From NCBI GenBank assembly GCA_964636985.1, contig CAZWSX010000003.1, positions 361,627-425,626 of the forward strand: 64,000 nt of DNA, read 5' to 3'. The notes under the pieces are model-generated. The model did not search any database. It saw only the letters and a list, made by a program, of their open reading frames with translations, and was not told where the DNA came from. Positions within the stretch are counted from its first letter, which is position 1; the number at the start of each line of letters is the position of its first letter. This DNA is from an uncultured Pirellulaceae bacterium (GTDB taxonomy: Bacteria; Planctomycetota; Planctomycetia; Pirellulales; Pirellulaceae). Both the position numbers and the translations under genes were made by a program. Shown piece after piece: positions 4,154 to 31,017 of this stretch.

Positions 4154-4251
4154 CATCGCCGCAGCGTTAGAATCATCACCATTCGCAAAAAACCGCAATA
4201 CTCTTCAACCCAGCACTCTTTAATCGACGCCAGTTGATCCAACAATAATCC

Positions 4252-7160: not shown

Positions 7161-7170
7161 ACCGTGCGCA

Positions 7171-8142
7171 GTGCAGACGCGAGGGCGCGAGGCGGTGGCG
7201 AAGTATCAAGAAGATATGCCGCTCGGAGAACTCGCCGAGGAAGTGTCGCGGCACCTTCGAAAGCCGTGCCATCTCCGCAAAATCAGCGGCTATCTCAACC
7301 GCACCGAAGTCTTCACGGTGAATGCCGATGAAGCGGTCGTAAAAGCGTACCACCACGCCGCGGATTCCAAATTCGCTCGCGAAGTCTCGGCGTACCGCGC
7401 TCTCGAAGGAACTCCTCTTCCGGTCGCAACGCTCTTAACAGCGAACAAGCTCAAGGATGGCACGCCATGGATTTGTCTGAGCTACCTGCACGGCGATCCC
7501 GCCGACCACATGCTGCCGAAGCTCACGCTGGACCACGATGCTCAACTGTTGAGAGGCATCGGGGCCGTCACGCAACAGTTGCACGAAATCCGCTTCGACC
7601 CCGCGCAAACGCTCGACGAGAGAGTCCGCCCCACAAACACGATGGAAAGCCAGATCGTGGAACGCTATCGACGTTTCCGTGACGTTGTCCTGGAACGGAA
7701 CGACCCTTGCCGCGACGTTCAGTCGGCGGCATCAACGTCATTCGAATCGGCAGTTGCGGCGACATCTTTTATCACCGGCCAGATCCAGCCGTGTCTTGTT
7801 CACGGCGATTTGTCGACCAGGAACTTCCTCGCCTTATGTTCGTCAGATATCCAGATTTCCGGAATGCTCGATTTCGAACGCAGCACATTCGGCGACCCAG
7901 CCCAGGACCTGGCGATGATTTGGATCAAGGACCTGCAAGGCAGGCCGCCGCGCGAAACGGCCTTTCAGCAAGGCTACGGGCAACTCTCCGTGGACATCCG
8001 CCAGCGCGTGCGAGTCCACGCGATCGGGCAGCTATTCGAAATTGCGAGTTGGTCCTGGGAAATGGATCGTCCGTTTTTCGAGTTTGCGATGGCAACACTC
8101 CCGCGGTTGATCTCAAGCGATCGCGAACTTTTTTCGGCATAG
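7171..8142 (+). CDS. phosphotransferase-family protein (aminoglycoside/choline-kinase-like fold)
   Basis: Brenner-like catalytic motif LVHGDLSTRNFL and a downstream MLDFERSTFGDPAQDLA (DxD) motif typical of APH-family kinases. Confidence 0.6.
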   Translation: MQTRGREAVAKYQEDMPLGELAEEVSRHLRKPCHLRKISGYLNRTEVFTVNADEAVVKAYHHAADSKFAREVSAYRALEGTPLPVATLLTANKLKDGTPWICLSYLHGDPADHMLPKLTLDHDAQLLRGIGAVTQQLHEIRFDPAQTLDERVRPTNTMESQIVERYRRFRDVVLERNDPCRDVQSAASTSFESAVAATSFITGQIQPCLVHGDLSTRNFLALCSSDIQISGMLDFERSTFGDPAQDLAMIWIKDLQGRPPRETAFQQGYGQLSVDIRQRVRVHAIGQLFEIASWSWEMDRPFFEFAMATLPRLISSDRELFSA

Positions 8143-8173
8143 CCGCAGTATCGCAAGCCAATTCCGTGAACCA

Positions 8174-8956
8174 TTACCAAGCAGGCGCCTCGCCGCCGTT
8201 GGGAGTGACGATCGTCCAAAAGACTTGCACGTCAATTTGCGGACTAATCACGCGTACCGAGCTATCGTGCATCGCCGCCAGCAACCCGCCCCGCTGCAGC
8301 GCCTGCGGAATGGTGGAGTCGCACTCCGTTTCTTTCGGCATGACCTGGAACTTCTTGTTGCGAACCGATGGATACGTGACCCGGTTGTCGGTGATGGGGA
8401 CGACGTCGTTCCATCTGGCGCCCGCGAACGTGTTGGGCCGCGGCTGATCGGCAGGCGGTGCCACCCGCTCCATATCGTCGTCCACGTCCTGTAGCTGACT
8501 CAACGTAACCATCGTGCCGTCGACCATGAAGATAAACCGGCCGCACACCGAGTAGTGCTCGGTGTACAACAACGTATTGCTCTTGCCATCTTCAATGTCG
8601 GGCCGCCGCGCATTTCGCAGCCGATTGCGATACTCCAAAAAATCGTTTTCGCAGTAGCTAACCGCGTTAGGCCAGGCCACCGACGACGTAGGATCGTTGG
8701 GACTACGCAGGACTGTGGGATTGCCTTCGCGCGCCTCTCTTCGCCATTGCGCCAAGTGATTTGTGTTTGATTCCGATGCCATGTCGTCGGCCAGCGCTAG
8801 CTGGCGGAGGTTGCTTTTACTCAGCGTCGTCCTGGCGGCAGCCCGCGCCGATTGGACACCAGTTAGCGTCAGCGCAACCAACACGCCGATGATGGCCATA
8901 ACTACCAGAAGCTCAACGAGTGAAAGGCCCGCACGAACGCGAGAAGACGAGATCAT
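8174..8956 (-). CDS. DUF1559 protein with prepilin-type N-terminal cleavage/methylation domain
   Basis: GLSLVELLVVMAIIGVLVALTLTGVQSARAAAR matches a type IV pilin-like N-terminus, and the C-terminal AMHDSSVRVIS resembles the DUF1559 H-x-DG tail. The internal ATG at 8956 is preferred over the ORF-track start at 9139, which overlaps the neighbouring gene. Confidence 0.7.
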   Translation of the reverse strand: MISSSRVRAGLSLVELLVVMAIIGVLVALTLTGVQSARAAARTTLSKSNLRQLALADDMASESNTNHLAQWRREAREGNPTVLRSPNDPTSSVAWPNAVSYCENDFLEYRNRLRNARRPDIEDGKSNTLLYTEHYSVCGRFIFMVDGTMVTLSQLQDVDDDMERVAPPADQPRPNTFAGARWNDVVPITDNRVTYPSVRNKKFQVMPKETECDSTIPQALQRGGLLAAMHDSSVRVISPQIDVQVFWTIVTPNGGEAPAW

Positions 8957-9053
8957 AGAAATTTGCCCGAGGGAACCGTGGAAGAGGAGAGAACGGCCTC
9001 GAATCGACAAGCGCAATCGTATGCTATTCCAAGCCACAAGCAATAGTTTTTTG

Positions 9054-17626: not shown

Positions 17627-18670
17627 CTACCGCTCCCACCGAAAAATCTTTAGCGCCACCGCAAACGACCCCACGCCCCAAGCCAGCAACATCAGCGCCG
17701 GCTTCCAAAGCGTAATCAGCGATTCTCCCTCCAGCATGATCCCGCGCAAAATGTTCACCAGGCACGTCAGCGGCAACGCCTGAATGAATGGCTGAAAGAA
17801 AGCCGGGAAACGGTCGGCCGAAAAGAAGACGCCCGACCCAATCCACATCGGTAGCATGATCAAGTTCATCAGCCCGCTGATGGCGTCGATCGTATTCGCC
17901 CGCGAAGCGATCAAGAGTCCAAGTCCGGCGAAACTCGCTCCGCCGAGCAACATCGCAATCGCCAGTTCCAGGTAGTTTCCTTGGCAAGTCACGCCGAACG
18001 CAAGCCAACCGAACAGCAGCAAAAAGGTCATGTCGAACACGGTGAAGATCAACCGCGATAGCATCACGCTCAACAGAAAATCCCCCTTCCGCATCGGCGT
18101 CGCCATCATCCGCTTCAGTAGCTTGCGCATCCGCATGTCGACCAGCACGAAGCCGATCCCCCACATGCCGCCACCCATCAGATTCATGCCAATCAGGCCA
18201 GGCAACAAAAAGTCGATGTAGCGGCTCCCTTTCTCTTCCAGTCGCATTTCCGACACCGCCGGTGCCTGGCTTCCAAGCTGATCTCGCAGAAACACATTCT
18301 CCACCGCCTGACGGGCCAGCACGCTCTCCGCGCGCCGCGGCTCGAACCAATAGTCAGGCGATTCCTTGCTCGTATCGACCACCAGATTCGTCTTGCCCGA
18401 TTGCAGTCGCTTCTTCCAATCCTTGTCGGTCGAGTTGGCCACGACAAATCGCTTGTCGCTCTTCAGTTTTTCTACGAATATTTCAGCCTTCGGCCCGATC
18501 ACGTCGACCAGGTGCGTTTCCTTGGGCTCGCCCCGAAAGGCCAGCCCAAGCGCCGTCAGCATGAGTAGTGGGAACGCGTACGTCCAAAAAACAGCCTCCG
18601 GCTCGCGGAGGAATTGCTTCACCCGCGCCGTGATCAGTTGCACTAGCGCCGACCCGCGTCCGCCACTCAT
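17627..18670 (-). CDS. ABC-2 type transporter permease
   Basis: 347-aa protein with an N-terminal soluble part followed by six hydrophobic helices. The stop abuts the ATPase gene. Confidence 0.75.
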   Translation of the reverse strand: MSGGRGSALVQLITARVKQFLREPEAVFWTYAFPLLMLTALGLAFRGEPKETHLVDVIGPKAEIFVEKLKSDKRFVVANSTDKDWKKRLQSGKTNLVVDTSKESPDYWFEPRRAESVLARQAVENVFLRDQLGSQAPAVSEMRLEEKGSRYIDFLLPGLIGMNLMGGGMWGIGFVLVDMRMRKLLKRMMATPMRKGDFLLSVMLSRLIFTVFDMTFLLLFGWLAFGVTCQGNYLELAIAMLLGGASFAGLGLLIASRANTIDAISGLMNLIMLPMWIGSGVFFSADRFPAFFQPFIQALPLTCLVNILRGIMLEGESLITLWKPALMLLAWGVGSFAVALKIFRWER

Positions 18671-19627
18671 CTAGTTTTCTCCCCCGTCGCGCAAGTGTCG
18701 CCCGGTCAGCGAAATGAAGACGTCTTCCAGCGTCGCATGCCGCGTGGTCAACGTAGCGAACGATCGGCCACTGCTCTGCAAATGATTCATCAACGCCGGC
18801 AACGCAATATGCGGCTCGTCGACCGAAAGGCTGTAGGCGCCGTCCTCGTGCCGGACCGCCCGCACCGACGGCAAGTTCTGAAACTCGGCATCCGTCGCCT
18901 TCATTCCGTTTTCTTCAAGCGAGAAGTCAACAATGTGTTGCCCGCCCAAGTTCGCAATCAATTCCGCAGGCGTTCCCAGCGCGATAATGTTTCCATGATC
19001 CACCACGGCGACGCGGTCGCACAATCGCTCGGCCTCGTCCATGTAGTGCGTGGTGACGAACACGGTTTTGCCCGCATCGCGAAACGACCGGATGATCTCC
19101 CACAACTGCCGCCGCGATTGCGGATCGAGCCCCGTCGTCGGCTCGTCCAGAAAAAGAATGTCAGGCGACCCAACAATCGCACAAGCGACAGCCAAGCGCT
19201 GCTTTTGTCCGCCCGAGAGTTTCTCGACATAAGCGCCGGTTTTCTCTTGCAGCGAAACCTTCGCGATGGCTTCCTCTGCCGAAACGCCGCTTGCATAAAA
19301 CGATCGAAAAAGATGGACCGTTTCGCCGACGGTCAGCTTATCGGCCAAGCGCGTCTCCTGCAGCGAGATGCCAATCCGTTCGCGAATCGCTTGATCGTCG
19401 TGCCCCCACCGCAGGCCCAGCACTTCGATTTCGCCCGAGGTCGGCGCCAGCAGCCCCTCGATCATTTCCATGGTGGTCGTTTTGCCAGCACCGTTGGGCC
19501 CCAGCAAACCAAAGCACTCGCCACTGGCCACCTCCAAATCGATGCTGCGAACGGCCTCGACAGGCGGCTTGGCCGCATACGTTTTGACTAACTGCCGGCA
19601 CCGAATCGCCATCTTGGGAGGGTTCAT
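18671..19627 (-). CDS. ABC transporter ATP-binding protein (start 19627 or 19612 is more likely than the ORF-track start at 19831)
   Basis: Walker A GPNGAGKTT, ABC signature LSGGQKQRL, Walker B ILFLDEPT. ATG at 19627 (MNPPK) or 19612 (MAIRC). Confidence 0.85.
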   Translation of the reverse strand: MNPPKMAIRCRQLVKTYAAKPPVEAVRSIDLEVASGECFGLLGPNGAGKTTTMEMIEGLLAPTSGEIEVLGLRWGHDDQAIRERIGISLQETRLADKLTVGETVHLFRSFYASGVSAEEAIAKVSLQEKTGAYVEKLSGGQKQRLAVACAIVGSPDILFLDEPTTGLDPQSRRQLWEIIRSFRDAGKTVFVTTHYMDEAERLCDRVAVVDHGNIIALGTPAELIANLGGQHIVDFSLEENGMKATDAEFQNLPSVRAVRHEDGAYSLSVDEPHIALPALMNHLQSSGRSFATLTTRHATLEDVFISLTGRHLRDGGEN

Positions 19628-19877
19628 GCGTGAAATGATACTCGGCGGCGCCGGTACCGGCCACAAAGGGTAGGGAAGATCACGAAGCGTTGAAGGCCGG
19701 TCGACTGTGTAGCAATTCAAAGGCGGTCGAAGCGACACGATGAGAAAAGAAGAGGTTCGCGCTGATTTCTGATTAATCTGGTTCTCGCGCCAACCGCACA
19801 ATCTGGTGCCAATAGGAACCCGATTCTTCACAAGCGGCTCACCCTAGTTCCTTCTATACTCTGCGAACGTACGCCTC

Positions 19878-20735
19878 TCACTGAAAGCAATTTGATGTGT
19901 CAAACGAAATCTTAAATGGCTTACCTTCTCTTTCTCTTCTCACGATATCCATCAATTCGAAGAATCGCTCGCAACCATTTACGGGAACTGGCATAAACGC
20001 GCCCAGATGACTTACGGTTTCCCTTTTCACGGTGACAACAACAAGAAAAAACTCAACGTCGTTGACTTTGCCCGGTACAACGAAGTGCGGTTCGTCGATC
20101 GGGAGATCGTTGCTTTCCAAGCCAATGATCAGAGATTTGAGGTCCGGATGTGCCATAGTTGGGTCCTGAATCCGCCGTCTAATCGCTTGAACAATTTCGG
20201 CCGCTGCATATTCGTATCCATAGCACTTAAACAAAGCGAGATAAGCAGCACGCAGGATAGCTGTGTGAAAGACGTTTTTTGAATAGTTTGTGTAAGACAC
20301 GTTGAACCCAGAGACTTCGCCGGCCTTCATCACACGCACAACGTGTTGGAGCGCCTTTGGGTCAGTGGCACGGCCCACAACCCGAAAGTTCTTGGTTTCC
20401 GTTCCGCACGCCAGATCAGCAGCAATCCGTTGACCGTTAACATCGAGCATAGTCCTGAGCGTTCCAAAACCACGAAAGACATCTGACAGTTCCTGAAACC
20501 TGACGAGGTGCGAGTCGAGGGAACTGCCTTGTTCGTTATTGCATCTTGTACACGTCAACACGACTGCCTTGCCGCCCACCGCGCCGGGAACTACGTGGTC
20601 TATCGATAATCCGTCAAAGTGAGTTTGCTGCCAACAAAGTGGGCATATGAGTGCATCATCCGTGGTTGAAAGTTGTGCCGCGCGCTGGCTGGACGCATAG
20701 TGCTCAAACATTCTCCGATTTGTTCTCGCATTCAT
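19878..20735 (-). CDS. HNH-motif nuclease-like protein with ~200-aa C-terminal domain of unknown function
   Basis: CPLCWQQ...SIDHVVPGAVGG...LTCTRCNNEQG fits the CxxC...DH..P...CxxCN HNH signature. Spot counts give ~50% GC here against ~60-65% in the flanks. Confidence 0.55.
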   Translation of the reverse strand: MNARTNRRMFEHYASSQRAAQLSTTDDALICPLCWQQTHFDGLSIDHVVPGAVGGKAVVLTCTRCNNEQGSSLDSHLVRFQELSDVFRGFGTLRTMLDVNGQRIAADLACGTETKNFRVVGRATDPKALQHVVRVMKAGEVSGFNVSYTNYSKNVFHTAILRAAYLALFKCYGYEYAAAEIVQAIRRRIQDPTMAHPDLKSLIIGLESNDLPIDEPHFVVPGKVNDVEFFLVVVTVKRETVSHLGAFMPVPVNGCERFFELMDIVRREREGKPFKISFDTSNCFQ

Positions 20736-20777
20736 GTTCTTTGTCTCGAATAGAAATACCGGCGTAGGACATTCGGC

Positions 20778-21296
20778 TCAAAGTGAAGTCGCGGTCCGGG
20801 CTAACTCGCCAGCATTGAACAGCAATCTTTCAGGTCGCCCAGCGGCCACACAATTTGATTGTTGCAGATCGACCGTCACGTGTTGCGGCGTCAACTCCTG
20901 AGGATCGTTAACTTCGCAGACCGTGCCGATGATTTTATCAGCAGATGCGATGTCTCCTTCCGAACGAATGAGTACCGAGGCAAGCGTCTCCGTAACATCA
21001 TGCCACTTATCGGCGAGAAACTCCGTAGGTGACTGCAAAGCCGCTACGATGCCCTTCCAACTTGGGCTATCGCGGTCGGCAGCTTCGAACACGAATCCTT
21101 CATTTTGTCTGGCGCGCATCCACTCGCCGACGCCCTCCACAGGCAACAACTCCAAGAAGCTCACCGGAACATAGGGGCCGCAAGCCTGATAGAGCCGAAA
21201 GCTCGCGACGTCGACTCCAATGGCCTGGGGAACACGGCCAACGACGTAATGATTTCCATCCGTGTCGCAGATCATGATCAGTTTGAAACGCCACAT
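20778..21296 (-). CDS. hypothetical protein; co-oriented 42 nt upstream of the HNH-motif gene
   Basis: 172-aa ORF in the same lower-GC block with no recognisable motif. Likely co-transcribed with 19878..20735. Confidence 0.4.
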   Translation of the reverse strand: MWRFKLIMICDTDGNHYVVGRVPQAIGVDVASFRLYQACGPYVPVSFLELLPVEGVGEWMRARQNEGFVFEAADRDSPSWKGIVAALQSPTEFLADKWHDVTETLASVLIRSEGDIASADKIIGTVCEVNDPQELTPQHVTVDLQQSNCVAAGRPERLLFNAGELARTATSL

Positions 21297-21647
21297 GTTT
21301 GTTCTGCCTTGTCAATTTCCAATCGACCTCGATCATTCACGTCGGAATTCTAGAGACCGAGCGACAGGGATAAGCCGACTTTGACAGAACTTTGATACGG
21401 CCGCGTTTTGTTTTTGCGCAACCCATGCGCCAGCGGCCTGCAGAACATCCAAGAGCCCGTGCCATTGCCCCCTTACTAGCCACGCCCAAACAGGGCATTC
21501 CGAGGCTATCGCCAAATCCCCCGGGCGTTTCATGAAAAAATTCCGCCAACTGTTGCGCCGCCATCGGGGTTGCGGTTGACCTTCAGAGCCCTATTCCGAG
21601 GGCCTGGCCGCTAAAGTGCGCCCCTGTTTGATAACGGAGAATTAGCG

Positions 21648-21761
21648 ATGGTGGGATTGGGCAATCCGTTCGCAATAGCGATCGAACTCTTAGGCGTGAC
21701 CGCGATGGCGATCATTGTGATACTGCTTGCGACAGGCCGACGAGAGTTCGACCGCCGCTAA
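21648..21761 (+). CDS. candidate 37-aa hydrophobic small protein (below the ORF-track cutoff)
   Basis: ATG preceded by GGAGAA 8-13 nt upstream. Translation MVGLGNPFAIAIELLGVTAMAIIVILLATGRREFDRR is one TM helix with a basic tail. Stop TAA at 21759-21761. Confidence 0.2.
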   Translation: MVGLGNPFAIAIELLGVTAMAIIVILLATGRREFDRR

Positions 21762-21788
21762 GAATCGCCCCCCCTTCGATGCCGCCAA

Positions 21789-21861
21789 GTATCCCTGTCA
21801 GGAGTCGAACCTGAACTACGACCTTCGCAGGGTCGCGTGCGAATCCTTAACACTTCAGGGA
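21789..21861 (-). tRNA. tRNA-Arg (anticodon GCG)
   Basis: 73-nt cloverleaf on the minus strand. Acceptor GTCCCTG/CAGGGAT, D-stem GTGT/GCAC, AC stem CGACC/GGTCG with loop CTGCGAA, T-arm TCAGG-TTCGACT-CCTGA. No encoded CCA. Confidence 0.65.
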
Positions 21862-21869
21862 CAGAAAAA

Positions 21870-21942
21870 ATCGCCAGTTCAGGAATCGAACCTGATCTTC
21901 CAGCTTCGGAGGCTGACGTGCGTATCCAGCACACCCACCGGC
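21870..21942 (-). tRNA. tRNA-Arg (anticodon CCG)
   Basis: 73 nt. Acceptor CGCCGGT/ACTGGCG, AC loop CTCCGAA, T-arm TCAGG-TTCGATT-CCTGA. A paralog of the preceding gene, with the same D- and T-arms. Confidence 0.7.
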
Positions 21943-22008
21943 GTTTCTTGCGTTCAATGGTTTTTGCCACAGAGGGCTCAAAGGTTGAGAATCGAAGGGG
22001 AGAAGGGG

Positions 22009-22047
22009 TGAGTGGGAGGTAGGGAGCAAAAGATTTTCACTCCCACT
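22009..22047. repeat. inverted repeat within a CT/GA-rich spacer of the tRNA array
   Basis: GAGTGGGAG ... CTCCCACTC, a 9-bp stem with a 21-nt loop, embedded in polypyrimidine tracts (ctccttcaacaccccatctcacattcttctcc). Confidence 0.4.
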
Positions 22048-22115
22048 CTCCTTCAACACCCCATCTCACATTCTTCTCCATGTCCTCCGTGCTCTCTGTG
22101 TTTAAACAAACCGAA

Positions 22116-22186
22116 GCACGAGCGCGAGGAGTCGAACCCCGTCCAACAGTTTTGGAGGCTGTCTGCTCACCCAGGAGCGTCACTCG
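22116..22186 (-). tRNA. tRNA-Trp (anticodon CCA) probable; the 31-39 pair is a C-A mismatch
   Basis: Acceptor ACGAGTG/CGCTCGT, D-arm GCTC-CTGGGTGA-GAGC, AC region GACAGC-CTCCAAA-ACTGTT (the loop matches the classical Trp CUCCAAA), T-arm CGGGG-TTCGACT-CCTCG. Confidence 0.5.
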
Positions 22187-22263
22187 TAAATTTTTACTTC
22201 CCCTCTTCTCCGTTCCCTCCGTGTCTCCGTGGTGAAACTCTCTCCACGCTCTGCGGCAAACAA

Positions 22264-22349
22264 GCGGAAGGCGAGGGAGTCGAACCCACATCGCCGTGAA
22301 GCGAACCACGTTAGCACCGTGGCCCAGCCAACCGTATCTGGCTGCCTTC
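22264..22349 (-). tRNA. tRNA-Ser (anticodon GCT), class II with long variable arm
   Basis: 86 nt. Acceptor GGAAGGC/GCCTTCC, D-stem CCAG/CTGG, AC stem CCACG/CGTGG with loop GTGCTAA, long extra arm, T-loop TTCGACT. Confidence 0.75.
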
Positions 22350-22360
22350 CTCAAGGATCA

Positions 22361-22434
22361 ATAGCCGAAGTGGGAGTCGAACCCACAAGCACCAGACTCT
22401 CGATCTGGCCGCTTTGCCAATTTGCGTACTCGGC
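22361..22434 (-). tRNA. aberrant tRNA: anticodon GAG (Leu) in a short-variable-arm class I body with C33
   Basis: Acceptor AGCCGAG/TTCGGCT, AC stem CCAGA/TCTGG with loop TCGAGAG, T-arm GTGGG-TTCGACT-CCCAC. Only 74 nt, so there is no long variable arm. Confidence 0.45.
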
Positions 22435-22527
22435 TATGTGTGATTTGCCACAGCGAGAATCGCTCCCCATCTCCCATTCTCCCTCTCCCCCATTCTCCTC
22501 CCCCGACTCTTTGGCAAAATCCCGAAC

Positions 22528-22600
22528 ATGACTCGTGCGGGAATCGAACCCGCGTTCTCAGCGTGAGAGGCTGAAGTCCTGTACCGTTAGACGAACGAGC
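22528..22600 (-). tRNA. tRNA-Glu (anticodon CTC)
   Basis: 73 nt. Acceptor GGCTCGT/ACGAGTC, D-arm GTCT-AACGGTACA-GGAC (Glu-like), AC stem TCAGC/GCTGA with loop CTCTCAC, T-arm GCGGG-TTCGATT-CCCGC. Confidence 0.75.
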
Positions 22601-22610
22601 CAAAAGAAGA

Positions 22611-22691
22611 GTGCGCCGGGCAGGAGTTGAACCCGCAATGCCAAAGCGAGTGGTTTACAGCCACCTGGACTTGCCCATGTTCCAACCGACG
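22611..22691 (-). tRNA. tRNA-Tyr (anticodon GTA), class II
   Basis: 81 nt. Acceptor GCGTCGG/CCGGCGC, AC stem GGTGG/CCACT with loop CTGTAAA, extra arm, T-loop TTCAACT. Confidence 0.7.
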
Positions 22692-22724
22692 CATGCTTGC
22701 CTTGAAACACTGTGTTTTGCGATG

Positions 22725-22798
22725 ATGGCCCGAGTGGGATTCGAACCCACAGCATCTTCGGGTTTAAGCCAAAGTGGTCTGCCGGTTGCCTACCGAGC
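22725..22798 (-). tRNA. aberrant tRNA: anticodon TAA (Leu/UUA reader) in a class I body
   Basis: 74 nt. Acceptor GGCTCGG/TCGGGCC, AC stem TTTGG/CCGAA with loop CTTAAAC, T-arm GTGGG-TTCGAAT-CCCAC. The D-arm is poorly paired and there is no long variable arm. Confidence 0.45.
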
Positions 22799-22816
22799 CG
22801 CGGCGAAGCTCACCAA

Positions 22817-22887
22817 ATAGTCTCGGATGGAATCGAACCATCGTTTTCGGCGTGTCATACCGGCGCCCTGCCATTGGACGACGAGAC
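22817..22887 (-). tRNA. tRNA-Val (anticodon GAC)
   Basis: 71 nt. Acceptor AGTCTCG/CGAGACT (perfect), D-arm GTCC-AATGGCA-GGGC, AC loop ATGACAC, T-arm GATGG-TTCGATT-CCATC. Confidence 0.7.
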
Positions 22888-22907
22888 TGCATTCAGACCC
22901 CTTGAAA

Positions 22908-22977
22908 ATTGCAGGCCCCGGATTCGAACCGGGCAGCGCGGCCTTATGAGGGCCGCCCAGGCGCCAGCCAAACCTGC
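22908..22977 (-). tRNA. tRNA-Met or tRNA-Ile(lysidine) (anticodon CAT); short, poorly paired D-arm
   Basis: 70 nt. Acceptor TGCAGGT/GCCTGCA, AC stem CGGCC/GGCCG with loop CTCATAA, T-arm CCCGG-TTCGAAT-CCGGG. Confidence 0.55.
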
Positions 22978-23012
22978 ATAGCGTGTGGTTCGATCAAGGA
23001 TCGAACCCCTAA

Positions 23013-23094
23013 GTCGTCGAGGGGAGAGTCGAACTCCCATGCCTAACGGCGTTCCGTTCTGAGCGGAGTGTGTCTGCCAGTTTCACCACTCGAC
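23013..23094 (-). tRNA. tRNA-Leu (anticodon CAG), class II
   Basis: 82 nt. Acceptor CGTCGAG/CTCGACG (perfect), 3-bp D-stem with an 11-nt loop, AC loop CTCAGAA, extra arm GCC..GGC, T-arm GGGAG-TTCGACT-CTCCC. Confidence 0.7.
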
Positions 23095-23226
23095 GAGTGA
23101 CAAGAGAGGAGGAACGAGACATTGACCCGCTGAAGGTTCGCGCGGCATGCAAGAGAACATTTCGCGAAGCCTCAACCGGTCCAACTTATCGCTGCCCTCT
23201 CTCCCTTGGCGGCGTTGCTAGCGCCA

Positions 23227-23298
23227 GCGACTCATGTGGGATTCGAACCCACCTACTCGGATTGAAAGTCCGATGACCTCACCAGAAGTCAAATGAGC
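23227..23298 (-). tRNA. tRNA-Glu (anticodon TTC)
   Basis: 72 nt. Acceptor GGCTCAT/ATGAGTC, D-arm GACT-TCTGGTGA-GGTC, AC stem TCGGA/TCCGA with loop CTTTCAA, T-arm GTGGG-TTCGAAT-CCCAC. Confidence 0.8.
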
Positions 23299-23339
23299 CA
23301 TGTCTTCTCTACTGTCTACTGCTCTCCTATCTACTGTCT

Positions 23340-23365
23340 ATTTTTGGACGCCAGAGCGTCCAAAA
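23340..23365. terminator. bidirectional intrinsic terminator hairpin downstream of tRNA-Asp
   Basis: TTTTGGACGC-CAGA-GCGTCCAAAA: 10-bp stem flanked by T and A runs. It is preceded by tctactgtct-type direct repeats. Confidence 0.6.
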
Positions 23366-23369
23366 ATCA

Positions 23370-23444
23370 GCGTCCCTGGCGGGATTTGAACCCGCGGTCT
23401 CCACCGTGACAGGGTGGTGAGTACTCCTGGCTACTCTGCAAGGA
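23370..23444 (-). tRNA. tRNA-Asp (anticodon GTC)
   Basis: 75 nt. Acceptor GTCCTTG/CAGGGAC, D-stem GAGT/ACTC, AC stem CCACC/GGTGG with loop CTGTCAC, T-arm GCGGG-TTCAAAT-CCCGC. Confidence 0.8.
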
Positions 23445-23464
23445 CATGTGTCAACAAAACTAAG

Positions 23465-23535
23465 GTGGAGCCATCGGGAGTTGCACCCGAATCTCCGGTT
23501 TGCAAGACCGGCGTCTTCCTGTTGGACGATAGTCC
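23465..23535 (-). tRNA. tRNA-Ala (anticodon TGC), degenerate: G3:U70 present but an A4·C69 mismatch and an atypical T-loop TGCAACT
   Basis: Acceptor GGGACTA/TGGCTCC, AC stem CCGGT/ACCGG with loop CTTGCAA, T-arm TCGGG-TGCAACT-CCCGA. 3' trailer ACCT. Confidence 0.5.
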
Positions 23536-23652
23536 CATGTTTTGAGCAGTGGATCAGGAGATCAGTAGACCGAGTTGAGTAGCCGAAGAGTCATTGCATT
23601 CAACGTCCTCTCTGCTCTTGCTGCTTTCTCTACTGTCTCATCTCAACTCTCT

Positions 23653-23678
23653 ATTTTTGGTCGCAAGAGCGACCAAAA
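23653..23678. terminator. bidirectional intrinsic terminator hairpin downstream of tRNA-Ser(CGA); covarying paralog of the 23340 hairpin
   Basis: TTTTGGTCGC-AAGA-GCGACCAAAA. The A>T change in the stem is compensated on the other arm, and the same tctactgtct prefix is present. Confidence 0.6.
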
Positions 23679-23680
23679 AT

Positions 23681-23768
23681 GCGGGAGCCGTGGGACTCGA
23701 ACCCACAAGCCAGCATTAACCAGCCGCCTGTTTTCGAGACAGGTTCCTCATCCGATCCGGATGACTCC
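23681..23768 (-). tRNA. tRNA-Ser (anticodon CGA), class II
   Basis: 88 nt. Acceptor GGGAGTC/GGCTCCC, AC stem CCTGT/ACAGG with loop CTCGAAA, long extra arm, T-arm GTGGG-TTCGAGT-CCCAC. Confidence 0.75.
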
Positions 23769-23859
23769 CGTGAAAAGCGATTTCGTGCGGCCACACATTG
23801 CGAGGGAAGGCCTGCCCCCAAACCTTCGCCCGCAACACGTTGAACGCACTGCCATCGCA

Positions 23860-23934
23860 GTTGCGAAGACTGGAATTGAACCAGTGACAACCTGATTCAA
23901 AGTCAGGCATCGGTACCAACACCGAATCCTTCGC
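23860..23934 (-). tRNA. tRNA-Gln (anticodon TTG) probable
   Basis: 75 nt. Acceptor TGCGAAG/CTTCGCA (U1-A72, as in bacterial Gln), AC stem CCTGA/TCAGG with loop CTTTGAA, T-arm ACTGG-TTCAATT-CCAGT. Confidence 0.6.
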
Positions 23935-23950
23935 AATAATTACCGACCCA

Positions 23951-24023
23951 GCTGCGAGGGCTGGAATTGAACCAGCGTCACGGCGGTTAACAGCCCCCAG
24001 TCCTTACCAACAAGGAACCTCGC
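23951..24023 (-). tRNA. tRNA-Asn (anticodon GTT) probable; G·G mismatch in AC stem and extra nucleotides between the D- and AC-arms
   Basis: Acceptor TGCGAGG/CCTCGCA, D-stem CCTT/AAGG, AC GGGGG-CTGTTAA-CCGCC (the classical Asn loop), T-arm GCTGG-TTCAATT-CCAGC. Closely related to the neighbouring Gln gene. Confidence 0.5.
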
Positions 24024-24039
24024 AAGAATCTTGTTCTCA

Positions 24040-24110
24040 AAGCGTCTAGCGGGAATTGAACCCACGCCTCCGACTTGGCACGCCAGCGCGCTACCTCTAC
24101 GCCATAGACG
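24040..24110 (-). tRNA. tRNA-Gly (anticodon GCC)
   Basis: 71 nt. Acceptor GCGTCTA/TAGACGC (perfect), D-arm GCGT-AGAGGTA-GCGC, AC stem CTGGC/GTCGG with loop GTGCCAA, T-loop TTCAATT. Confidence 0.65.
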
Positions 24111-24149
24111 CATTTGCTACATCGACCGAATTGTCAAACATCGCTTTCA

Positions 24150-24221
24150 GAGCACCGGGTGGGAGTCGAACCCACGTACCTGCATTACGGGTGCAGAGTC
24201 CTAGCCGCTAAACGACCAGTG
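24150..24221 (-). tRNA. tRNA-Thr (anticodon CGT) with unusual C33
   Basis: 72 nt. Acceptor GCACTGG/CCGGTGC, D-stem GTTT/GGAC, AC stem CTGCA/TGCAG with loop CCCGTAA, T-arm GTGGG-TTCGACT-CCCAC. Confidence 0.55.
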
Positions 24222-24234
24222 CATTTGTTCGGTG

Positions 24235-24270
24235 ACCCGTCGAGCGCAAGCTTTTGACCGCGCTCGACGG
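24235..24270. terminator. strong hairpin between tRNA-Lys and tRNA-Thr (12-bp stem)
   Basis: CCCGTCGAGCGC-aagcttttgacc-GCGCTCGACGGG is a perfect inverted repeat. Confidence 0.45.
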
Positions 24271-24302
24271 GGACTGTATTTCCGTGCCTCAAAATCTTCA
24301 CA

Positions 24303-24375
24303 GTGGGACTCGACGGACTTGAACCGCCACCGACTCGGTTAAAAGCCGAGCATGCTGCCGCTAACACCTGAATCC
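24303..24375 (-). tRNA. tRNA-Lys (anticodon TTT)
   Basis: 73 nt. Acceptor GGGATTC/GAGTCCC, AC stem CTCGG/CCGAG with loop CTTTTAA, T-arm GGCGG-TTCAAGT-CCGTC. Confidence 0.7.
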
Positions 24376-24398
24376 CATTGGTTTCGTTCATGCTGTCA

Positions 24399-24470
24399 GT
24401 GGTCTGGGAGGCGCTCGAATCCTCGTATCCTGTTCTTCAGACAGGCGCTACACCGTCTCAGCTACCAGAC
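24399..24470 (-). tRNA. tRNA-Phe (anticodon GAA) with a non-canonical T-arm (4-bp stem, loop ATTCGAGCG)
   Basis: Acceptor GGTCTGG/CCAGACC (perfect), D-arm TAGCTGAGACGGTGTAGC, AC stem CCTGT/ACAGG with loop CTGAAGA. Confidence 0.6.
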
Positions 24471-24873
24471 CGTTTCGTTTCAAACCTTCCCTCCGCGCAC
24501 GAAAAAAGCCCGACATCCTGCGGACGCCGGGCTTGGCGAGGGAACTCGCTGCCAAGCAGACGTCACGTGATAAGTCGTAGTTCAAACTGTTCGGACCAAC
24601 CCAGCAGGTTGCTTCGCTCGCCTAAAGCGAGCGCGCTATCTAATTGGCTTTGATAGGCCAACTGTTTGCCGGATTGATTACTGGAACGTTTCATGACTTG
24701 GTCTCCCTGCTTTGGCTCAGCGAAAAACTCCGCCAGCACGCGACAGGGGATTTTTTGATTTGGGGAACCACTCGAAAGGGGTTTTTCACCGTCCTACGAC
24801 GGCGTCTTACTAATACGATGCTGCGAACCCAAGATTTGTTCGCGCGCCGGAGAAAAAAAGTTTGGGTGGCACT

Positions 24874-24890: not shown

Positions 24891-25337
24891 AGTCCAACCC
24901 CCCCGGATGAGCCCGCCGCACAACGCAGCACTTACAGGCCCCACCGACGTTCTTGCCTCGAAACCACTTCCCATTTAGGAAACTATTCGATCGGCCACGC
25001 TTCCACGTCTGCGCACTTTTCCCATCCGCACGAGATGCGTTGGCCCGTCGCGCGTGTCACATCACCGCTGCGCGCGGAACGCTTCCACGGCTTCGGACCC
25101 TGTGCACCTCCGAAGCTGAGCCAGCAATCCAAAGCAGCCCGTTCATTGACAATCTGGTTGAACGATTAGATCTGCCCCGGTCTCGCGATGGCCTAGCCTC
25201 GCCGCGCGAGACCGGGCCCGGGCCATGCTTTGTCCCTACTTCTCTCTCTACTGTCTACTTTCCACTTTCTACTGTCTGGCTCCCGGGGTTGGCGCCAGCG
25301 TCCCTCAGACGCCAGTTGCGCAAAGGTTCCTCTCCCT

Positions 25338-25354
25338 GGCGTCTTTGGGACGCC
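25338..25354. repeat. GGCGTC-N5-GACGCC palindrome copy
   Basis: GGCGTC-TTTGG-GACGCC; an imperfect copy lies 40 nt upstream (CAGCGTC-CCTCA-GACGCCAG). Confidence 0.5.
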
Positions 25355-29778: not shown

Positions 29779-31017
29779 TCATTGCCTGGTGCGGCGGGGA
29801 CCTTGTCTTCGAAGGAACGGATACTTCGCCTTGAGCGCTCGTTGCTCGTCGCGTGATGAATCGGGCAGCTGACACCATAGTTCGCGAAGGAAAGGCAAGC
29901 CTTTGAAGTGCTCGAAGTCTTCGGGGTCAAGTCTCATAGGCGCCAATCCAACGACCTCTAGCGATTTGATTTTACATAGCAGCGGCACAATTTCTTTGCC
30001 GAGCTGAGGCTCATTGATCTGCAGGCGCCGAAGGCGATGCATGCCTTGTAGCTGTGCAATTCCTTCCGTGGTGATGTCGGTATTCGACAGACTCACATAC
30101 GTTGGGTTGGTTTTTCTTGCAAGTTCTTGAAGACGGTGATCGGTACTATCGGTCCCTTGGAGCCTGACATGACCCAGGTCGGCTATGGCTCGGTCGAAAC
30201 TCTCTTTTTCCTCAGGCATCCAGAAAGGTAAGGTGATCGCTCTCCTGCGTCGCTTGACGATTCTCCTTAAAGTAGGAGGAGGCGCCGAACGCTGCATGAG
30301 AGTCTTAAAAGAACCCTCGATCACATCGAGGTCTTCCGTAGTCAGCTGCATGATGTTGGGCATCTGCCGCAGCGTGGCGACGTTGCCGGGCGTGAGATCT
30401 TCGGTAACCAGATCGAGTTGCCGAAGACTCGGATAGTCCTTGAGTAAAGCGAAGGCCGTTTCCGAGATGGCCCCGCGCGGTACGTCCCCCGGCGCAAGCC
30501 ATGTCGAATAGCTCCGTCCCACGTTGAGCGTTTGCAGGCGTGGCAATTCCCTCAGATAGGTCAAGCTCTTGTCGGTGACGTTTGTCCCCCGGATGCCAAG
30601 TTCTTCGAGCGACCGCATAGTGATCAGCTTTTCAACACCGGCATCGGTGATCGGCGTATTGTTCACCAACAGCTTCTTCAAATTCGGAAGATGTGACAGT
30701 TGAGCCAGGGTTTCGTCGGTGATCGATGTGCCACTCAAGTCCAAAGAGGTCAACGTCCTGAGGGCCGCCAGTTGCGGCGCCACGTGATCTGTCACCTTGG
30801 TGCGGGCAAGCGAAAGTTCCTCGATCGCACCATAGTTCGCCAGAAATTCCAGATCATCATCCGAACTAGACGTGTCGGCTAACGACAAGGAGAAGCCGTC
30901 ACGCCGATCAAAAGCGTCCGCAAGCTGAAACGCGGCACCAGCCAATGCACCCAACGGCGCGAAGATCGCCGTCCCTCCCCAAGATCCGACATCGCTACCC
31001 CTCCATGACGGTCTCAA
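29779..31017 (-). CDS. leucine-rich-repeat protein with N-terminal hydrophobic leader; true start uncertain (TTG 31017 proposed)
   Basis: Repeats of L..L..L.L..T.ITD (for example LTSLDLSGTSITDETLAQLSHLPNLKKLLVNNTPITDAGV). The first ~170 codons of the ORF-track frame overlap the upstream DUF1501 gene and are not believed. Confidence 0.5.
   Translation of the reverse strand: MRPSWRGSDVGSWGGTAIFAPLGALAGAAFQLADAFDRRDGFSLSLADTSSSDDDLEFLANYGAIEELSLARTKVTDHVAPQLAALRTLTSLDLSGTSITDETLAQLSHLPNLKKLLVNNTPITDAGVEKLITMRSLEELGIRGTNVTDKSLTYLRELPRLQTLNVGRSYSTWLAPGDVPRGAISETAFALLKDYPSLRQLDLVTEDLTPGNVATLRQMPNIMQLTTEDLDVIEGSFKTLMQRSAPPPTLRRIVKRRRRAITLPFWMPEEKESFDRAIADLGHVRLQGTDSTDHRLQELARKTNPTYVSLSNTDITTEGIAQLQGMHRLRRLQINEPQLGKEIVPLLCKIKSLEVVGLAPMRLDPEDFEHFKGLPFLRELWCQLPDSSRDEQRALKAKYPFLRRQGPRRTRQ

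Follow-up and report, generated by a model that had tools for sequence, protein, structure and literature searches.

A dense array of 21 non-canonical tRNA genes on the chromosome of a Pirellulaceae bacterium, collinear with an array in a related species

The window, a stretch of 64,000 nucleotides from an uncultured Pirellulaceae bacterium, contains a dense array of tRNA genes on the minus strand, as are all other features for which coordinates are given here. ARAGORN at default settings found 19 tRNA genes at 21789-24471 and none elsewhere in the 64-kb window, and Rfam model RF00005 recovered two more above its gathering score (23228-23299 and 23466-23536). The array thus comprises 21 genes on one strand in 2,683 bp (7.8 per kb), with spacers of 8-172 nt as computed from the coordinates. 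This confirms the 21 minus-strand genes proposed in an initial sequence-only reading, which had also called all 19 of its listed anticodons correctly. Its description of a dense, near-complete, same-strand array stands, but its estimate of about 18 amino acid specificities was too high, as the standard members cover 16.

The flanks of the array are ordinary chromosomal genes, with a GGDEF-CBS gene on one side and an ABC transporter on the other. Directly downstream lies a conserved neighbor encoding a 172-aa protein (20778-21296), for which only two homolog clusters were found among 5.8 billion proteins. One of these led to a syntenic locus from a related metagenomic species, L085, in which a collinear, 23-gene array occupies the same site between the same two neighbors.

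Except where noted, the members described below were predicted by ARAGORN, bit scores are from Rfam, and identities refer to the L085 counterparts. The first gene in the direction of transcription is tRNA-Phe(GAA) (24399-24471; 55.2 bits; 73/73 positions identical), followed by tRNA-Lys(UUU) (24303-24376; 46.2 bits; 94.6%), which has A8 instead of U8 and a compensatory T-stem change relative to L085. tRNA-Thr(CGU) (24150-24222; 48.8 bits) carries C33 in the loop CCCGUAA, and its L085 counterpart is only 74% identical, with broken stems. The best score of the array, 60.1 bits, belongs to tRNA-Gly(GCC) (24041-24111), in which pairing is kept in all five stem changes relative to L085. tRNA-Asn(GUU) (23951-24024; 35.8 bits) has a G.G mismatch in the anticodon stem and differs from L085 by pairing-preserving changes, two of them two-sided and three one-sided, and tRNA-Gln(UUG) (23860-23935; 36 bits) shows a compensatory acceptor-stem change. 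tRNA-Ser(CGA) (23681-23769; 91%) has a long variable arm and was matched in Rfam only as tRNA-Sec, at a subthreshold 35 bits. tRNA-Ala(UGC) (23466-23536; 50 bits; 93%), detected by ARAGORN at a relaxed threshold only, retains G3:U70 but is mismatched at 4:69 (A.C), and its T loop, UGCAACU, is aberrant. Next are tRNA-Asp(GUC) (23370-23445; 35.9 bits from a partial model match; 98.7%), which has C8, and tRNA-Glu(UUC) (23228-23299; Rfam only, 52.3 bits; 88.9%). In the aligned sequences of the latter, an acceptor-stem T-to-C/A-to-G change keeps the pair, whereas the automated count gave zero two-sided changes.

The remaining standard members begin with an ordinary tRNA-Leu(CAG) with a long variable arm (23013-23095; 44.2 bits; 98.8%) and a tRNA(CAU) with a weak D arm (22909-22978; 98.6%) that would read Met or, after lysidine modification, act as Ile2; Rfam did not report the latter, even at an E value of ≤1. 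tRNA-Val(GAC) (22818-22888; 54 bits) occurs in the window only and is 71% identical to the tRNA-Ile(GAU) of L085. The next standard members are tRNA-Tyr(GUA) (22611-22692; 38.4 bits; 93.9%), tRNA-Glu(CUC) (22528-22602; 58.9 bits; 94.7%), and tRNA-Ser(GCU) (22264-22350; 97.7%), which has a long variable arm and is found too in Logan contig L084 (99.2% identical). tRNA-Trp(CCA) (22116-22187; 97.2%) has a C.A mismatch in the anticodon stem and gave just a weak tRNA-Sec match in Rfam (26 bits). The array ends with tRNA-Arg(CCG) (21871-21943; 40.7 bits; 94.5%) and tRNA-Arg(GCG) (21789-21862; 48.2 bits; 74/74 positions identical), the last of which is also common to arrays L098, L099, L100, and L103.

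Two members had been singled out as aberrant, and both indeed combine a leucine anticodon with a short variable arm. The first (22361-22436; ARAGORN; 49.3 bits; 74/74 positions identical to L085) has anticodon GAG in the loop UCGAGAG, with C33, and A73. Members of its family are present at 10 metagenome loci and 2 loci on IMG/VR contigs of the viral collection, and it is a hallmark common to arrays from unrelated metagenomes. Covariation is strong: in an alignment of 10 sequences, all pairs form and 11 of 20 pairs show a compensatory change, values that 0 of 500 shuffles reached. The second (22726-22799; ARAGORN; 38.5 bits; 94.6% identical to L085) has anticodon UAA and A73, and a homolog with compensatory changes lies on an IMG/VR contig (L092).

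Could this be an ordinary housekeeping operon that holds the sole copies of its tRNAs and is merely more clustered than usual? Its location at the same chromosomal site in the related species, the strong conservation of the tRNA bodies, and the lack of other tRNA genes in the window would fit, as would the anticodons, which in the case of Asp, Glu, Phe, Gly, Leu, Asn, Arg, Ser, Val, and Tyr correspond to the codon used most. However, the 21 genes include no His, Pro, or Cys anticodon, Ile is missing unless the CAU tRNA is Ile2, and many codons in use (e.g., GGG, GGA, CCN, ACC, GCC, and AAG) have no Watson-Crick partner among the array anticodons, so other tRNA genes must exist in the genome. 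Members score 35.8 to 60.1 bits in Rfam, well below the 74.2 bits of a stand-alone planctomycete tRNA-Val; several lack U8, two have C33, one (Ala) has an aberrant T loop, and stems contain mismatches. Moreover, whole genes have been gained or lost between the sister species, and planctomycete housekeeping tRNAs are canonical and located elsewhere, with the usual single tRNA-Trp adjoining an elongation factor gene named ef1a (EF-Tu) (Kim et al. 2016, PMC4807772). We therefore consider a housekeeping operon very improbable. The initial reading had named, as evidence against it, related genomes with the same genes at the same place as canonical housekeeping tRNAs; L085 does share the genes and their placement, but the tRNAs are non-canonical. 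The set consists of non-canonical extra tRNAs, not canonical housekeeping tRNAs, and the 21 genes most likely supplement housekeeping tRNAs dispersed through the genome and do not substitute for them, a redundancy that we infer.

Comparison with L085 bears on whether these genes are maintained. The tRNA bodies are 93.9% identical (1,427/1,520), compared with 41% (611/1,496) for the array spacers and 75 to 85% for flanking coding DNA, in a two-species comparison with the only diverged relative found to carry the array. Pairing is preserved in two-thirds of stem changes, with 25 changes that keep pairing, 6 of them two-sided. Judged by this comparison, the tRNA bodies are under purifying selection and not decaying, while the spacers drift freely. 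Because the bodies are selected while the spacers drift, most members probably yield working RNAs, although some look impaired, namely, Asn and Trp with their mismatched anticodon stems, Ala with its aberrant T loop, and, in L085, the decayed copy of Thr. Gene content also differs, with Val found only in the window and Lys-CUU, Leu-CAA, and Ile-GAU only in L085.

The low covariance model scores, the many non-canonical features, and the clear decay of the L085 Thr copy could instead indicate that a tRNA cluster of prophage or horizontally acquired origin is decaying here and now consists of pseudogenes without present function. Kim et al. (PMC4807772) described such planctomycete clusters as “partially degraded” and possibly dispensable, and a strong hairpin with a U run directly upstream of the array would also fit. 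Decay is nonetheless unlikely given the identity of the bodies relative to spacers and neighboring protein genes, the preserved pairing, and the complete conservation in both species of the oddest member (GAG, C33), which covaries across ten diverged copies.

A lower-G+C HNH cassette had been noted next to the array. The cassette is real: an HNH_5 endonuclease gene (Pfam; 19878-20735; GC3, 0.52) lies in a region with a G+C content of 0.512 versus about 0.59. It does not belong to the array, however, as it is missing from L085, where 74 bp replace window positions 19770-20978, and homologs in three other contexts (Thalassoglobus and two metagenome contigs) have no tRNA array nearby and instead adjoin IS3 or IS200 transposases or an integrase. 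Its absence from the sister locus and the lack of tRNA genes beside its homologs imply a separate insertion; to judge from sequence, the HNH gene is an unrelated later arrival of lower G+C. This bears on the idea that a prophage or an element still mobile today carries the array, with the HNH enzyme moving it as a homing endonuclease. HNH endonuclease genes are the commonest coding genes with tRNA arrays in Mycobacterium (PMC5966550 and PMC12803027) and Anabaena (all8564; PMC8421152), and both aberrant tRNAs have homologs on contigs classified as viral in IMG/VR. Yet tblastn turned up no relative among phages or plasmids, no integrase, transposase, or phage genes occur within about 20 kb, and a blastn search with the array as query gave only single-tRNA matches among 50,697 phages and 72,556 plasmids. 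With a syntenic sister array lacking the HNH gene, we regard current mobility as very improbable. The mobile-element or phage-derived setting proposed at first is thus not borne out, given the chromosomal flanks and the collinear array at the same site in L085.

Upstream of tRNA-Phe, a conserved small open reading frame (ORF) of 43 codons plus stop, MKRSSNQSGKQLAYQSQLDSALALGERSNLLGWSEQFELRLIT (24563-24694), is preceded by a Shine-Dalgarno-like GGGAGA 8 nt upstream. It has no Pfam match. The L085 ortholog has 44 codons and an in-frame 3-nt indel, and the C-terminal SEQFELRLIT is invariant despite three third-position changes. Farther upstream, a non-coding block (24700-24860; alignment columns about 540 to 700), nearly invariant between the two species, is a candidate for the unit's promoter and 5' leader. 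Between the ORF and the array lies a terminator-like hairpin of 13 pairs with a U run (24498-24534), ending 34 nt before tRNA-Phe. It is kept in L085, with changes only in the upper stem and loop, whereas the 34 to 45 nt that follow are not conserved. The hairpin was present in every constrained fold tried and no competing structure was found, so that sequence alone gives no support for regulated read-through.

Within the array, a spacer module between tRNA-Asp and tRNA-Glu(UUC) (23300-23369) consists of an 11-bp perfect hairpin, UUUUUGGACGC-loop-GCGUCCAAAAA, with AGTAGAN heptad repeats after it. A second copy follows tRNA-Ser(CGA) (23617-23680), at least five copies occur in the L085 array, and related hairpins with heptad repeats occupy a stretch that immediately follows the GGDEF-CBS gene and precedes the array unit (25230-25353). 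The motif AGTAGACAGTAGAGA has 8 matches versus 0.37 expected in 64 kb, confined to these three places. The “unit-like terminator modules” reported earlier are these hairpins, in which the U run is paired with the A run; they are not canonical intrinsic terminators.

Contrary to the initial suggestion that such arrays had not been described in planctomycete-like genomes, Kim et al. 2016 (PMC4807772, S2 Text) reported “degenerate tRNA gene clusters” of 2 to 28 genes in many planctomycete genomes, and Tran et al. 2016 (PMC4758250) and Santamaria-Gomez et al. 2021 (PMC8421152) included Planctomycetes among the phyla with arrays. The array reported here is the same kind of element as the clusters of Kim et al. 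tRNA arrays are supernumerary and spread by horizontal transfer (PMC8421152), and the initial view of a rare kind of array, one that the literature links to such transfer, is supported, as are the non-canonical tRNAs and the adjacent HNH gene.

Overall, the evidence favors, with good though incomplete confidence, a chromosomal tRNA array unit (“L-array”), that is, a conserved extra set at a fixed site, vertically inherited and not currently mobile or phage borne. The common ancestor of the two species would have acquired or assembled the array, which would since have descended vertically without leaving its site between the GGDEF-CBS gene and the ABC transporter operon. The differences in Val, Lys-CUU, Leu-CAA, and Ile-GAU would reflect the gain and loss of single genes. 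The genes are probably cotranscribed, with the promoter in the conserved block that precedes the small, presumably translated ORF. Transcription would have to pass the strong hairpin and U run, which may keep basal expression low. RNase P and 3' nucleases would then process the transcript, and the CCA-adding enzyme would complete the tRNAs, as CCA is not encoded in any of the genes. In Anabaena, the array stays silent until translation is under stress, and 23 of the 26 tRNAs are charged (PMC8421152). By analogy with this trn operon and with phage tRNA sets, the planctomycete array may be a reserve tRNA pool matching the most-used codons of its host. Such a pool would help under impaired translation or during an attack on housekeeping tRNAs, and the altered anticodon loops (C33) are consistent with this idea.

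ARAGORN at default settings predicted 19 tRNA genes at 21789-24471, all on the minus strand, and zero others in the 64-kb window. Two more genes scored over the gathering threshold of the Rfam tRNA model (RF00005), Glu-UUC at 23228-23299 and Ala-UGC at 23466-23536, the latter also recovered by ARAGORN at a relaxed threshold (cloverleaves printed). These 19 and 2 genes bear out the dense, same-strand array of 21 tRNA genes described in the sequence-only reading; all of the anticodons listed there were right, and its spacer range agrees with the 8 to 172 nt computed here. The array packs its 21 genes into 2,683 bp (7.8 per kb), its anticodon order has no repeating unit, and the only direct-repeat families are shared T arms and a spacer module. 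About 18 amino acid specificities had been claimed, but the standard members cover 16; none serves His, Pro, or Cys, and Ile is served only if the CAU tRNA is Ile2.

The array tRNA genes are real but non-canonical. RF00005 scores range from 35.8 to 60.1 bits across 17 members, lower than the 74.2 bits of the single reference tRNA, a stand-alone planctomycete tRNA-Val from another locus. Ser(CGA), Ser(GCU), and Trp were matched only weakly, via the Rfam tRNA-Sec model, and the CAU tRNA was not reported at all. By inspection of the sequence, none of the 21 genes encodes the 3' CCA. The array departs from the canonical cloverleaves of a housekeeping operon (U8, U33, T-Psi-C): at least six members lack U8, and C33 replaces U33 in two, Thr(CGU) (24150-24222) and a tRNA with a GAG anticodon. 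The Ala tRNA retains G3:U70 but has an A.C mismatch and a T loop reading UGCAACU, and the anticodon stems of Asn and Trp contain G.G and C.A mismatches, respectively.

We compared the array anticodons with codon usage over 33 window open reading frames (ORFs) (15,656 codons). They are Watson-Crick partners of the top codon for Asp, Glu, Phe, Gly, Asn, Val, and Tyr, as well as for Leu (CUG and CUC), Arg (CGC and CGG), and Ser (UCG and AGC), and the Thr anticodon pairs with the second most-used Thr codon. The array thus looks tuned to the frequent codons of its host and not to rare ones. The well-used codons GCC, ACC, AAG, GGG/GGA, and CCN have no Watson-Crick partner in it; with these and His, Pro, and Cys uncovered, other tRNA genes must be present elsewhere in the genome. 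From these gaps in decoding, we infer that the array is supernumerary to a complete housekeeping set.

Pfam annotation of 20 flanking proteins showed that the array is flanked by ordinary chromosomal genes. On one side are ceramidase-like, YjgF-family, DUF2752, ABC-2 permease, and ABC ATPase genes, and on the other are genes for a GGDEF-CBS protein and acetolactate synthase; farther out lie CTP synthase, two DUF1501 proteins, a Ser/Thr kinase with LRR repeats, and TPR/CHAT proteins. The sequence-only reading had linked such arrays to mobile elements or phage-derived regions, a setting that these flanks contradict: no integrase, transposase, or phage structural or replication gene was found among the 20 proteins within ∼20 kb of the array, where the only mobile-type gene encodes an HNH_5 endonuclease. 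This gene (19878-20735, minus strand) lies in a lower-G+C stretch between the array and the ABC operon, together with a gene for a 172-amino-acid protein of no known function that has just two homologue clusters in a collection of 5.8 billion proteins. A 37-codon ORF on the plus strand (21648-21761) runs toward the 3' end of the array and encodes MVGLGNPFAIAIELLGVTAMAIIVILLATGRREFDRR, a small hydrophobic peptide. It is called as a gene on L084, a Logan contig (run ERR10900138) that is 99.2% identical to 4.7 kb of the window (17684-22371) and ends inside the array. Elsewhere in the window, cumulative GC skew reaches a minimum at ∼30000-31000, where the predominant coding strand apparently switches; the position may be that of a replication origin or terminus or only the point at which gene orientation changes.

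One of the two homologues of the 172-amino-acid protein is on L085, a 285-kb JGI metagenome contig from a related species (Ga0590114_0000157) with an array at the same site. The gene order on L085 is acetolactate synthase, GGDEF-CBS, a 4.4-kb gap, the 172-amino-acid homologue, ABC ATPase, ABC-2 permease, DUF2752, YjgF, one extra gene, and ceramidase. The gap contains 21 tRNA genes predicted by ARAGORN and 2 detected only by Rfam, collinear with those of the window. Three genes, Lys(CUU), Leu(CAA), and Ile(GAU), are unique to L085, and Val(GAC) is unique to the window. No tRNA genes adjoin the GGDEF-CBS orthologues that share 56% and 46% identity, but synteny is broken there, so they do not date the array; the best GGDEF-CBS matches in a genome-contig search, which was swamped by the conserved GGDEF peptide pattern, were 35% identical. 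Between the GGDEF-CBS gene and its array, L085 also has two matches to the Rfam Acido-Lenti-1 RNA motif (5581-5626, minus strand, and 5731-5777, plus strand). Three further copies occur on L082 (10950-10995, 12202-12247, and 19033-19077), which is, like L085, a planctomycete-like locus. Four of the five copies score over the gathering threshold and one just under it; the window has no match at threshold.

The lower-GC HNH cassette noted beside the array is indeed present, but it does not belong to the array. It is absent from L085, where 74 bp replace ∼1.2 kb of the window (19770-20978). The only named relative of the protein is from the planctomycete Thalassoglobus polymorphus (50% identity), and homologues in three other contexts lie beside IS3 or IS200 transposases or within an integrase-bearing island. 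The sole tRNA gene near these homologues is one tRNA-Val by an integrase gene in one of the loci (L083), and none has an array. In Thalassoglobus polymorphus (L081, 7754-8109), IS3-family transposase genes separate the homologue from the tmRNA gene ∼1.9 kb away, a setting typical of island insertion. We found no match to the HNH protein in phage and plasmid collections (tblastn). Its absence at L085, its homologues without arrays, and the lack of a match in the phage and plasmid collections led us to reject the HNH gene as the mobilizer of the array. The gene is independent of the array and is a separate, recent insertion.

The comparison with L085 also bears on whether the array is a cluster of pseudogenes. 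The 20 shared tRNA bodies are 93.9% identical (1427/1520 positions), versus 41% (611/1496, with large indels) for spacers between the same neighboring tRNAs and 75 to 85% for flanking coding DNA. Phe and Arg(GCG) are unchanged between the species, and so is the GAG tRNA over the 74/74 positions aligned. Where stem pairs differ, standard pairing survives in 19 with a change on one side and in 6 with changes on both, and one change mends a mismatch. Thirteen changes disrupt pairing; a decaying L085 Thr copy accounts for 4 of these and the Ser(CGA) variable arm, which carries indels, for 3, and some of the 13 are artifacts that arose because ARAGORN drew one terminal pair too many. The conservation of bodies relative to spacers and the pairing-preserving stem changes indicate that selection maintains the bodies while the spacers drift. 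As judged from these two species, the comparison shows purifying selection on the array tRNA bodies, which a pseudogene cluster would not show, though single members are being lost.

The window Val(GAC) tRNA (22818-22888) and the L085 Ile(GAU) tRNA (8970-9042) are 71% identical and have acceptor and T arms in common, although they occupy different array positions, which suggests anticodon switching among array paralogues. On L085, Lys(CUU) and Lys(UUU) are tandem neighbors and 86% identical.

Two members, GAG (22361-22436) and UAA (22726-22799), have leucine anticodons, a length of 74 to 76 nt, a variable region of 4 to 5 nt, and A73. With these type I tRNALeu features, they are short-arm (“type I”) tRNALeu-like genes, and they coexist in the array with an ordinary long-arm tRNALeu(CAG). 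In Streptomyces coelicolor, the type I tRNALeu(CAA) is charged by its own LeuRS but not by that of E. coli (PMC6614811). Some bacterial LeuRS enzymes can charge tRNAs with short variable loops, and the only precedents for such charging are the Streptomyces and human mitochondrial LeuRS (PMC6614811). The window tRNAs resemble the Streptomyces molecule in combining a leucine anticodon with a short variable region beside a long-arm tRNALeu. They differ from it in their anticodons (GAG and UAA), in the C33 of the GAG tRNA, and in being encoded in arrays, not by stand-alone genes.

We scanned public collections with a pattern built from the anticodon arm and the start of the T arm of the GAG tRNA and recovered 2 loci in IMG/VR and 10 in JGI metagenomes. 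Seven of the 10 metagenome matches sit in dense clusters of 5 to 24 tRNA genes, and the other three (L094, L096, and L102) have 1 to 3 nearby tRNAs within the sequence examined. The metagenome arrays also contain short-arm tRNAs with CAG, CAA, and UAG anticodons, plus Arg(GCG), and the Thr(CGU)-Gly(GCC) adjacency of the window recurs in some of them. L101 is closest overall to the window array, with six tRNAs at 77 to 86% identity. In the distribution seen here, a single related species has the array at the shared site, and individual tRNAs are common to unrelated metagenome arrays. When ten diverged members of the GAG family were aligned, a standard pair was found in every cell, and 11 of 20 pairs included a compensatory change; 0 of 500 shuffles reached the observed values. 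The loop UCGAGAG is invariant, C33 included. Invariance of the anticodon arm is partly by construction, the pattern having fixed it, but no such effect applies to the covariation of the remaining three stems. The GAG/C33 short-arm tRNA provides a sequence signature by which related arrays in different phyla can be located, with CCAGATCGAGAGTCTGG as the array-family pattern. Directly after the three-tRNA cluster with the GAG/C33 tRNA on L102, we detected a cobalamin riboswitch (348-568; 88 bits).

C33 is also found in further isoacceptors of the metagenome arrays L095-L103 (one to five per array), namely, Val-CAC, Gly-GCC, Asp-GUC, Ala-UGC, and Glu-CUC; examples are Val-CAC at 2034-2107 and Gly-GCC at 1536-1607 of L100 and Asp-GUC at 1383-1456 of L099. 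A homologue of the UAA tRNA with compensatory changes occurs on IMG/VR contigs. Patterns for tRNA-Phe and the UAA tRNA gave 0 matches in the viral collection, and similarity of the array to phages and plasmids consisted only of single-tRNA matches, mostly to tRNA-Asp. On two contigs classed as viral by IMG/VR (L092 and L093; UViG_3300007523_000006 and UViG_3300032462_001516; 117 and 99 kb) and on the 462-kb metagenome contig L096 (Ga0209284_10000002), an ordinary bacterial-type EF-Tu gene is closely preceded by short-arm GAG and UAA tRNAs and a long-arm Leu(CAA) (L092, 4051-5666). Near this gene are AlkB-like and SbcD-like genes and a third short-arm tRNA (UAG), and the G+C content is 45 to 48%.

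Roles against anticodon nucleases have been proposed for phage and plasmid arrays, and for phage tRNA clusters in particular the proposal is resistance to anticodon nucleases of the host (van den Berg et al. 2023, PMC10264068). The anticodon loops of phage clusters differ from those of the host at nuclease-recognized positions, and the window array has C33 in Thr(CGU) and the GAG tRNA. A dedicated class of nuclease-resistant or otherwise specialized decoders traveling with the arrays would fit the C33 and GAG tRNAs. Unlike the phage clusters, the window array is in a cellular chromosome, and we identified no nuclease or defense gene beside it.

Part of the region upstream of the array is conserved as well. 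From the GGDEF-CBS stop codon to tRNA-Phe is ∼900 bp, of which the last ∼390 bp are well conserved in L085 and comprise, in order, a near-invariant block, a 43-codon ORF (24563-24694, minus strand), a small hairpin, and a 13-pair hairpin (24498-24534). The ORF has a GGGAGA Shine-Dalgarno-like site 8 nt before its ATG. Its L085 counterpart has 44 codons and differs by a 3-nt indel that keeps the frame and by twelve replacements; of six silent changes, three fall within the invariant C-terminal SEQFELRLIT. The larger hairpin is followed by UUUUUU and ends 34 nt before tRNA-Phe. Upstream of the array, then, is the layout of a leader-peptide attenuator, an ORF followed by a terminator-like hairpin. 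The 34 to 45 nt from the hairpin to the first tRNA are not conserved between the window and L085, and a promoter there is unlikely, so the array transcript probably has to read past the hairpin and its U run. The hairpin probably keeps array expression low.

A similar layout occurs in a second, unrelated array lineage (L100, 1-304, and L103, 4900-5186). There, a 50-codon ORF with a good ribosome-binding site precedes the first tRNA, the two ORFs differ by silent and replacement changes, and a strong hairpin with a U run lies 15 to 20 nt ahead of the first tRNA. Directly downstream of the L100 array (3464-8549) are genes for a 937-amino-acid ClpB-like AAA+ protein fused to a PCRF (release-factor) domain, for RNase J, and for a DUF520 protein; mycobacterial arrays have been reported to carry a gene with an RF-1 domain (PMC5966550, PMC12803027). 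A classical attenuator, in which the position of the ribosome decides which hairpin forms, is not supported: in constrained RNAfold predictions for the window, L085, and L100, the terminator hairpin persisted whichever part of the ORF was masked, and none of the three loci had a competing antiterminator. The ORF and hairpin may merely keep expression low or act in another way. Their recurrence suggests that the state of translation could gate array transcription through a leader-ORF device, unlike the repressor control of the array of Anabaena. That both halves of this picture hold, a specialized GAG/C33 decoder class traveling with arrays and leader-ORF translation gating in two array lineages, we consider rather doubtful. 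A targeted look at the literature on arrays, tRNALeu, and phage tRNAs found no description of a GAG/C33 short-arm tRNA or of an ORF-hairpin leader, and both may be previously undescribed.

No riboswitch, T-box, or other known RNA was detected in the leader or spacers with Rfam at a permissive threshold. In two array spacers, AGTAGAN heptad repeats follow a perfect hairpin of 11 bp, with a related copy just after the GGDEF-CBS gene, and the motif is confined to these three places in the window (8 matches versus 0.37 expected). L085 has at least five copies of the module, each after a different tRNA. These had been described as terminator modules, but they are not canonical intrinsic terminators; the U and A runs belong to the stem, and no U run lies beyond it in either direction.

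Arrays of this kind had been thought undescribed in planctomycetes, an idea refuted by Kim et al. 2016 (PMC4807772, S2 Text) and by two array surveys that list Planctomycetes among array-bearing phyla (Tran et al. 2016, PMC4758250; Santamaria-Gomez et al. 2021, PMC8421152). Kim et al. described degenerate tRNA gene clusters of 2 to 28 genes in many planctomycete genomes, with low covariance scores versus canonical tRNAs and rapid content turnover, and proposed an origin by horizontal transfer (PMC4807772). The window array shares the phylum-level setting, the low scores, and the change in content between relatives (Val versus Lys/Leu/Ile). It differs in that neither the window nor L085 has a UAU anticodon; canonical tRNA-Ile(UAU) is reported in the clusters of “several,” not all, genomes (PMC4807772). 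Kim et al. stress the degradation and dispensability of the clusters (PMC4807772), whereas the comparison of the window with L085 shows purifying selection on the tRNA bodies. They place the canonical housekeeping tRNAs of planctomycetes outside such clusters, among them a Trp-EF-Tu-Thr-Gly-Tyr-Thr cluster, whose EF-Tu gene they name ef1a (PMC4807772).

With 21 genes at 7.8 per kb, the array falls within the definition of a tRNA array unit (≥20 genes, ≥2 per kb) and, like other such units, favors redundancy of core isoacceptors (Tran et al. 2016, PMC4758250). Unlike the Acidithiobacillus ferrooxidans array (PMC4758250), it has no integrative-conjugative-element context visible in the window. 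It also has the single orientation and non-periodic order of an L-array (Santamaria-Gomez et al. 2021, PMC8421152), and its maximum spacer of 172 nt is compatible with cotranscription.

The trn operon of Anabaena sp. PCC 7120 likewise has >20 co-oriented, non-periodic, non-housekeeping-like tRNAs adjoining an HNH gene (PMC8421152; Puerto-Galan and Vioque 2012), and its low basal expression is probably matched here. It is silent until translation is impaired, when 23 of its 26 tRNAs are made and charged (PMC8421152). The Anabaena array is on a megaplasmid, whereas that of the window is chromosomal; control in Anabaena is by repressor-bound 9-nt direct repeats at the promoter, whereas the window has the small ORF and hairpin/U run upstream; and the two HNH proteins have no detectable similarity (tblastn against plasmids). 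Mycobacterial arrays comprise 26 to 37 tRNA genes for 19 to 20 amino acids, are redundant with chromosomal tRNAs, and occur on chromosomes, phages, and giant linear plasmids, with a proposed antidefense role (PMC5966550, PMC12803027). Where their tRNAs differ, they do so mostly in the D, anticodon, and variable arms (Morgado and Vicente 2018, PMC5966550; Yano et al. 2026, PMC12803027). In Mycobacterium and Anabaena, arrays are accompanied by HNH genes more often than by any others (PMC5966550, PMC12803027, PMC8421152), and the window array likewise has one nearby. The mycobacterial arrays are on mobile replicons at variable sites, whereas that of the window is fixed in a conserved chromosomal neighborhood and covers only 16 amino acids.

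We conclude that the array is a genuine, selected genetic element of a kind already reported in Planctomycetes. The evidence best supports a tRNA set that is supernumerary and inherited vertically, with purifying selection acting on it and genes turning over; by analogy with the known systems, its physiological role would be that of a reserve. As one more example of a known array class, it corrects the idea that Planctomycetes are without such arrays. The window and L085 form a clean natural experiment, in which the same array has stayed at the same site with its odd tRNAs kept and its spacers lost, and the selection seen on these odd tRNAs argues against the common view of “degenerate” clusters as junk. 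If the small ORF and terminator do act as a translation-sensing switch, they would provide a simple way to hold a reserve tRNA set silent until it is needed.
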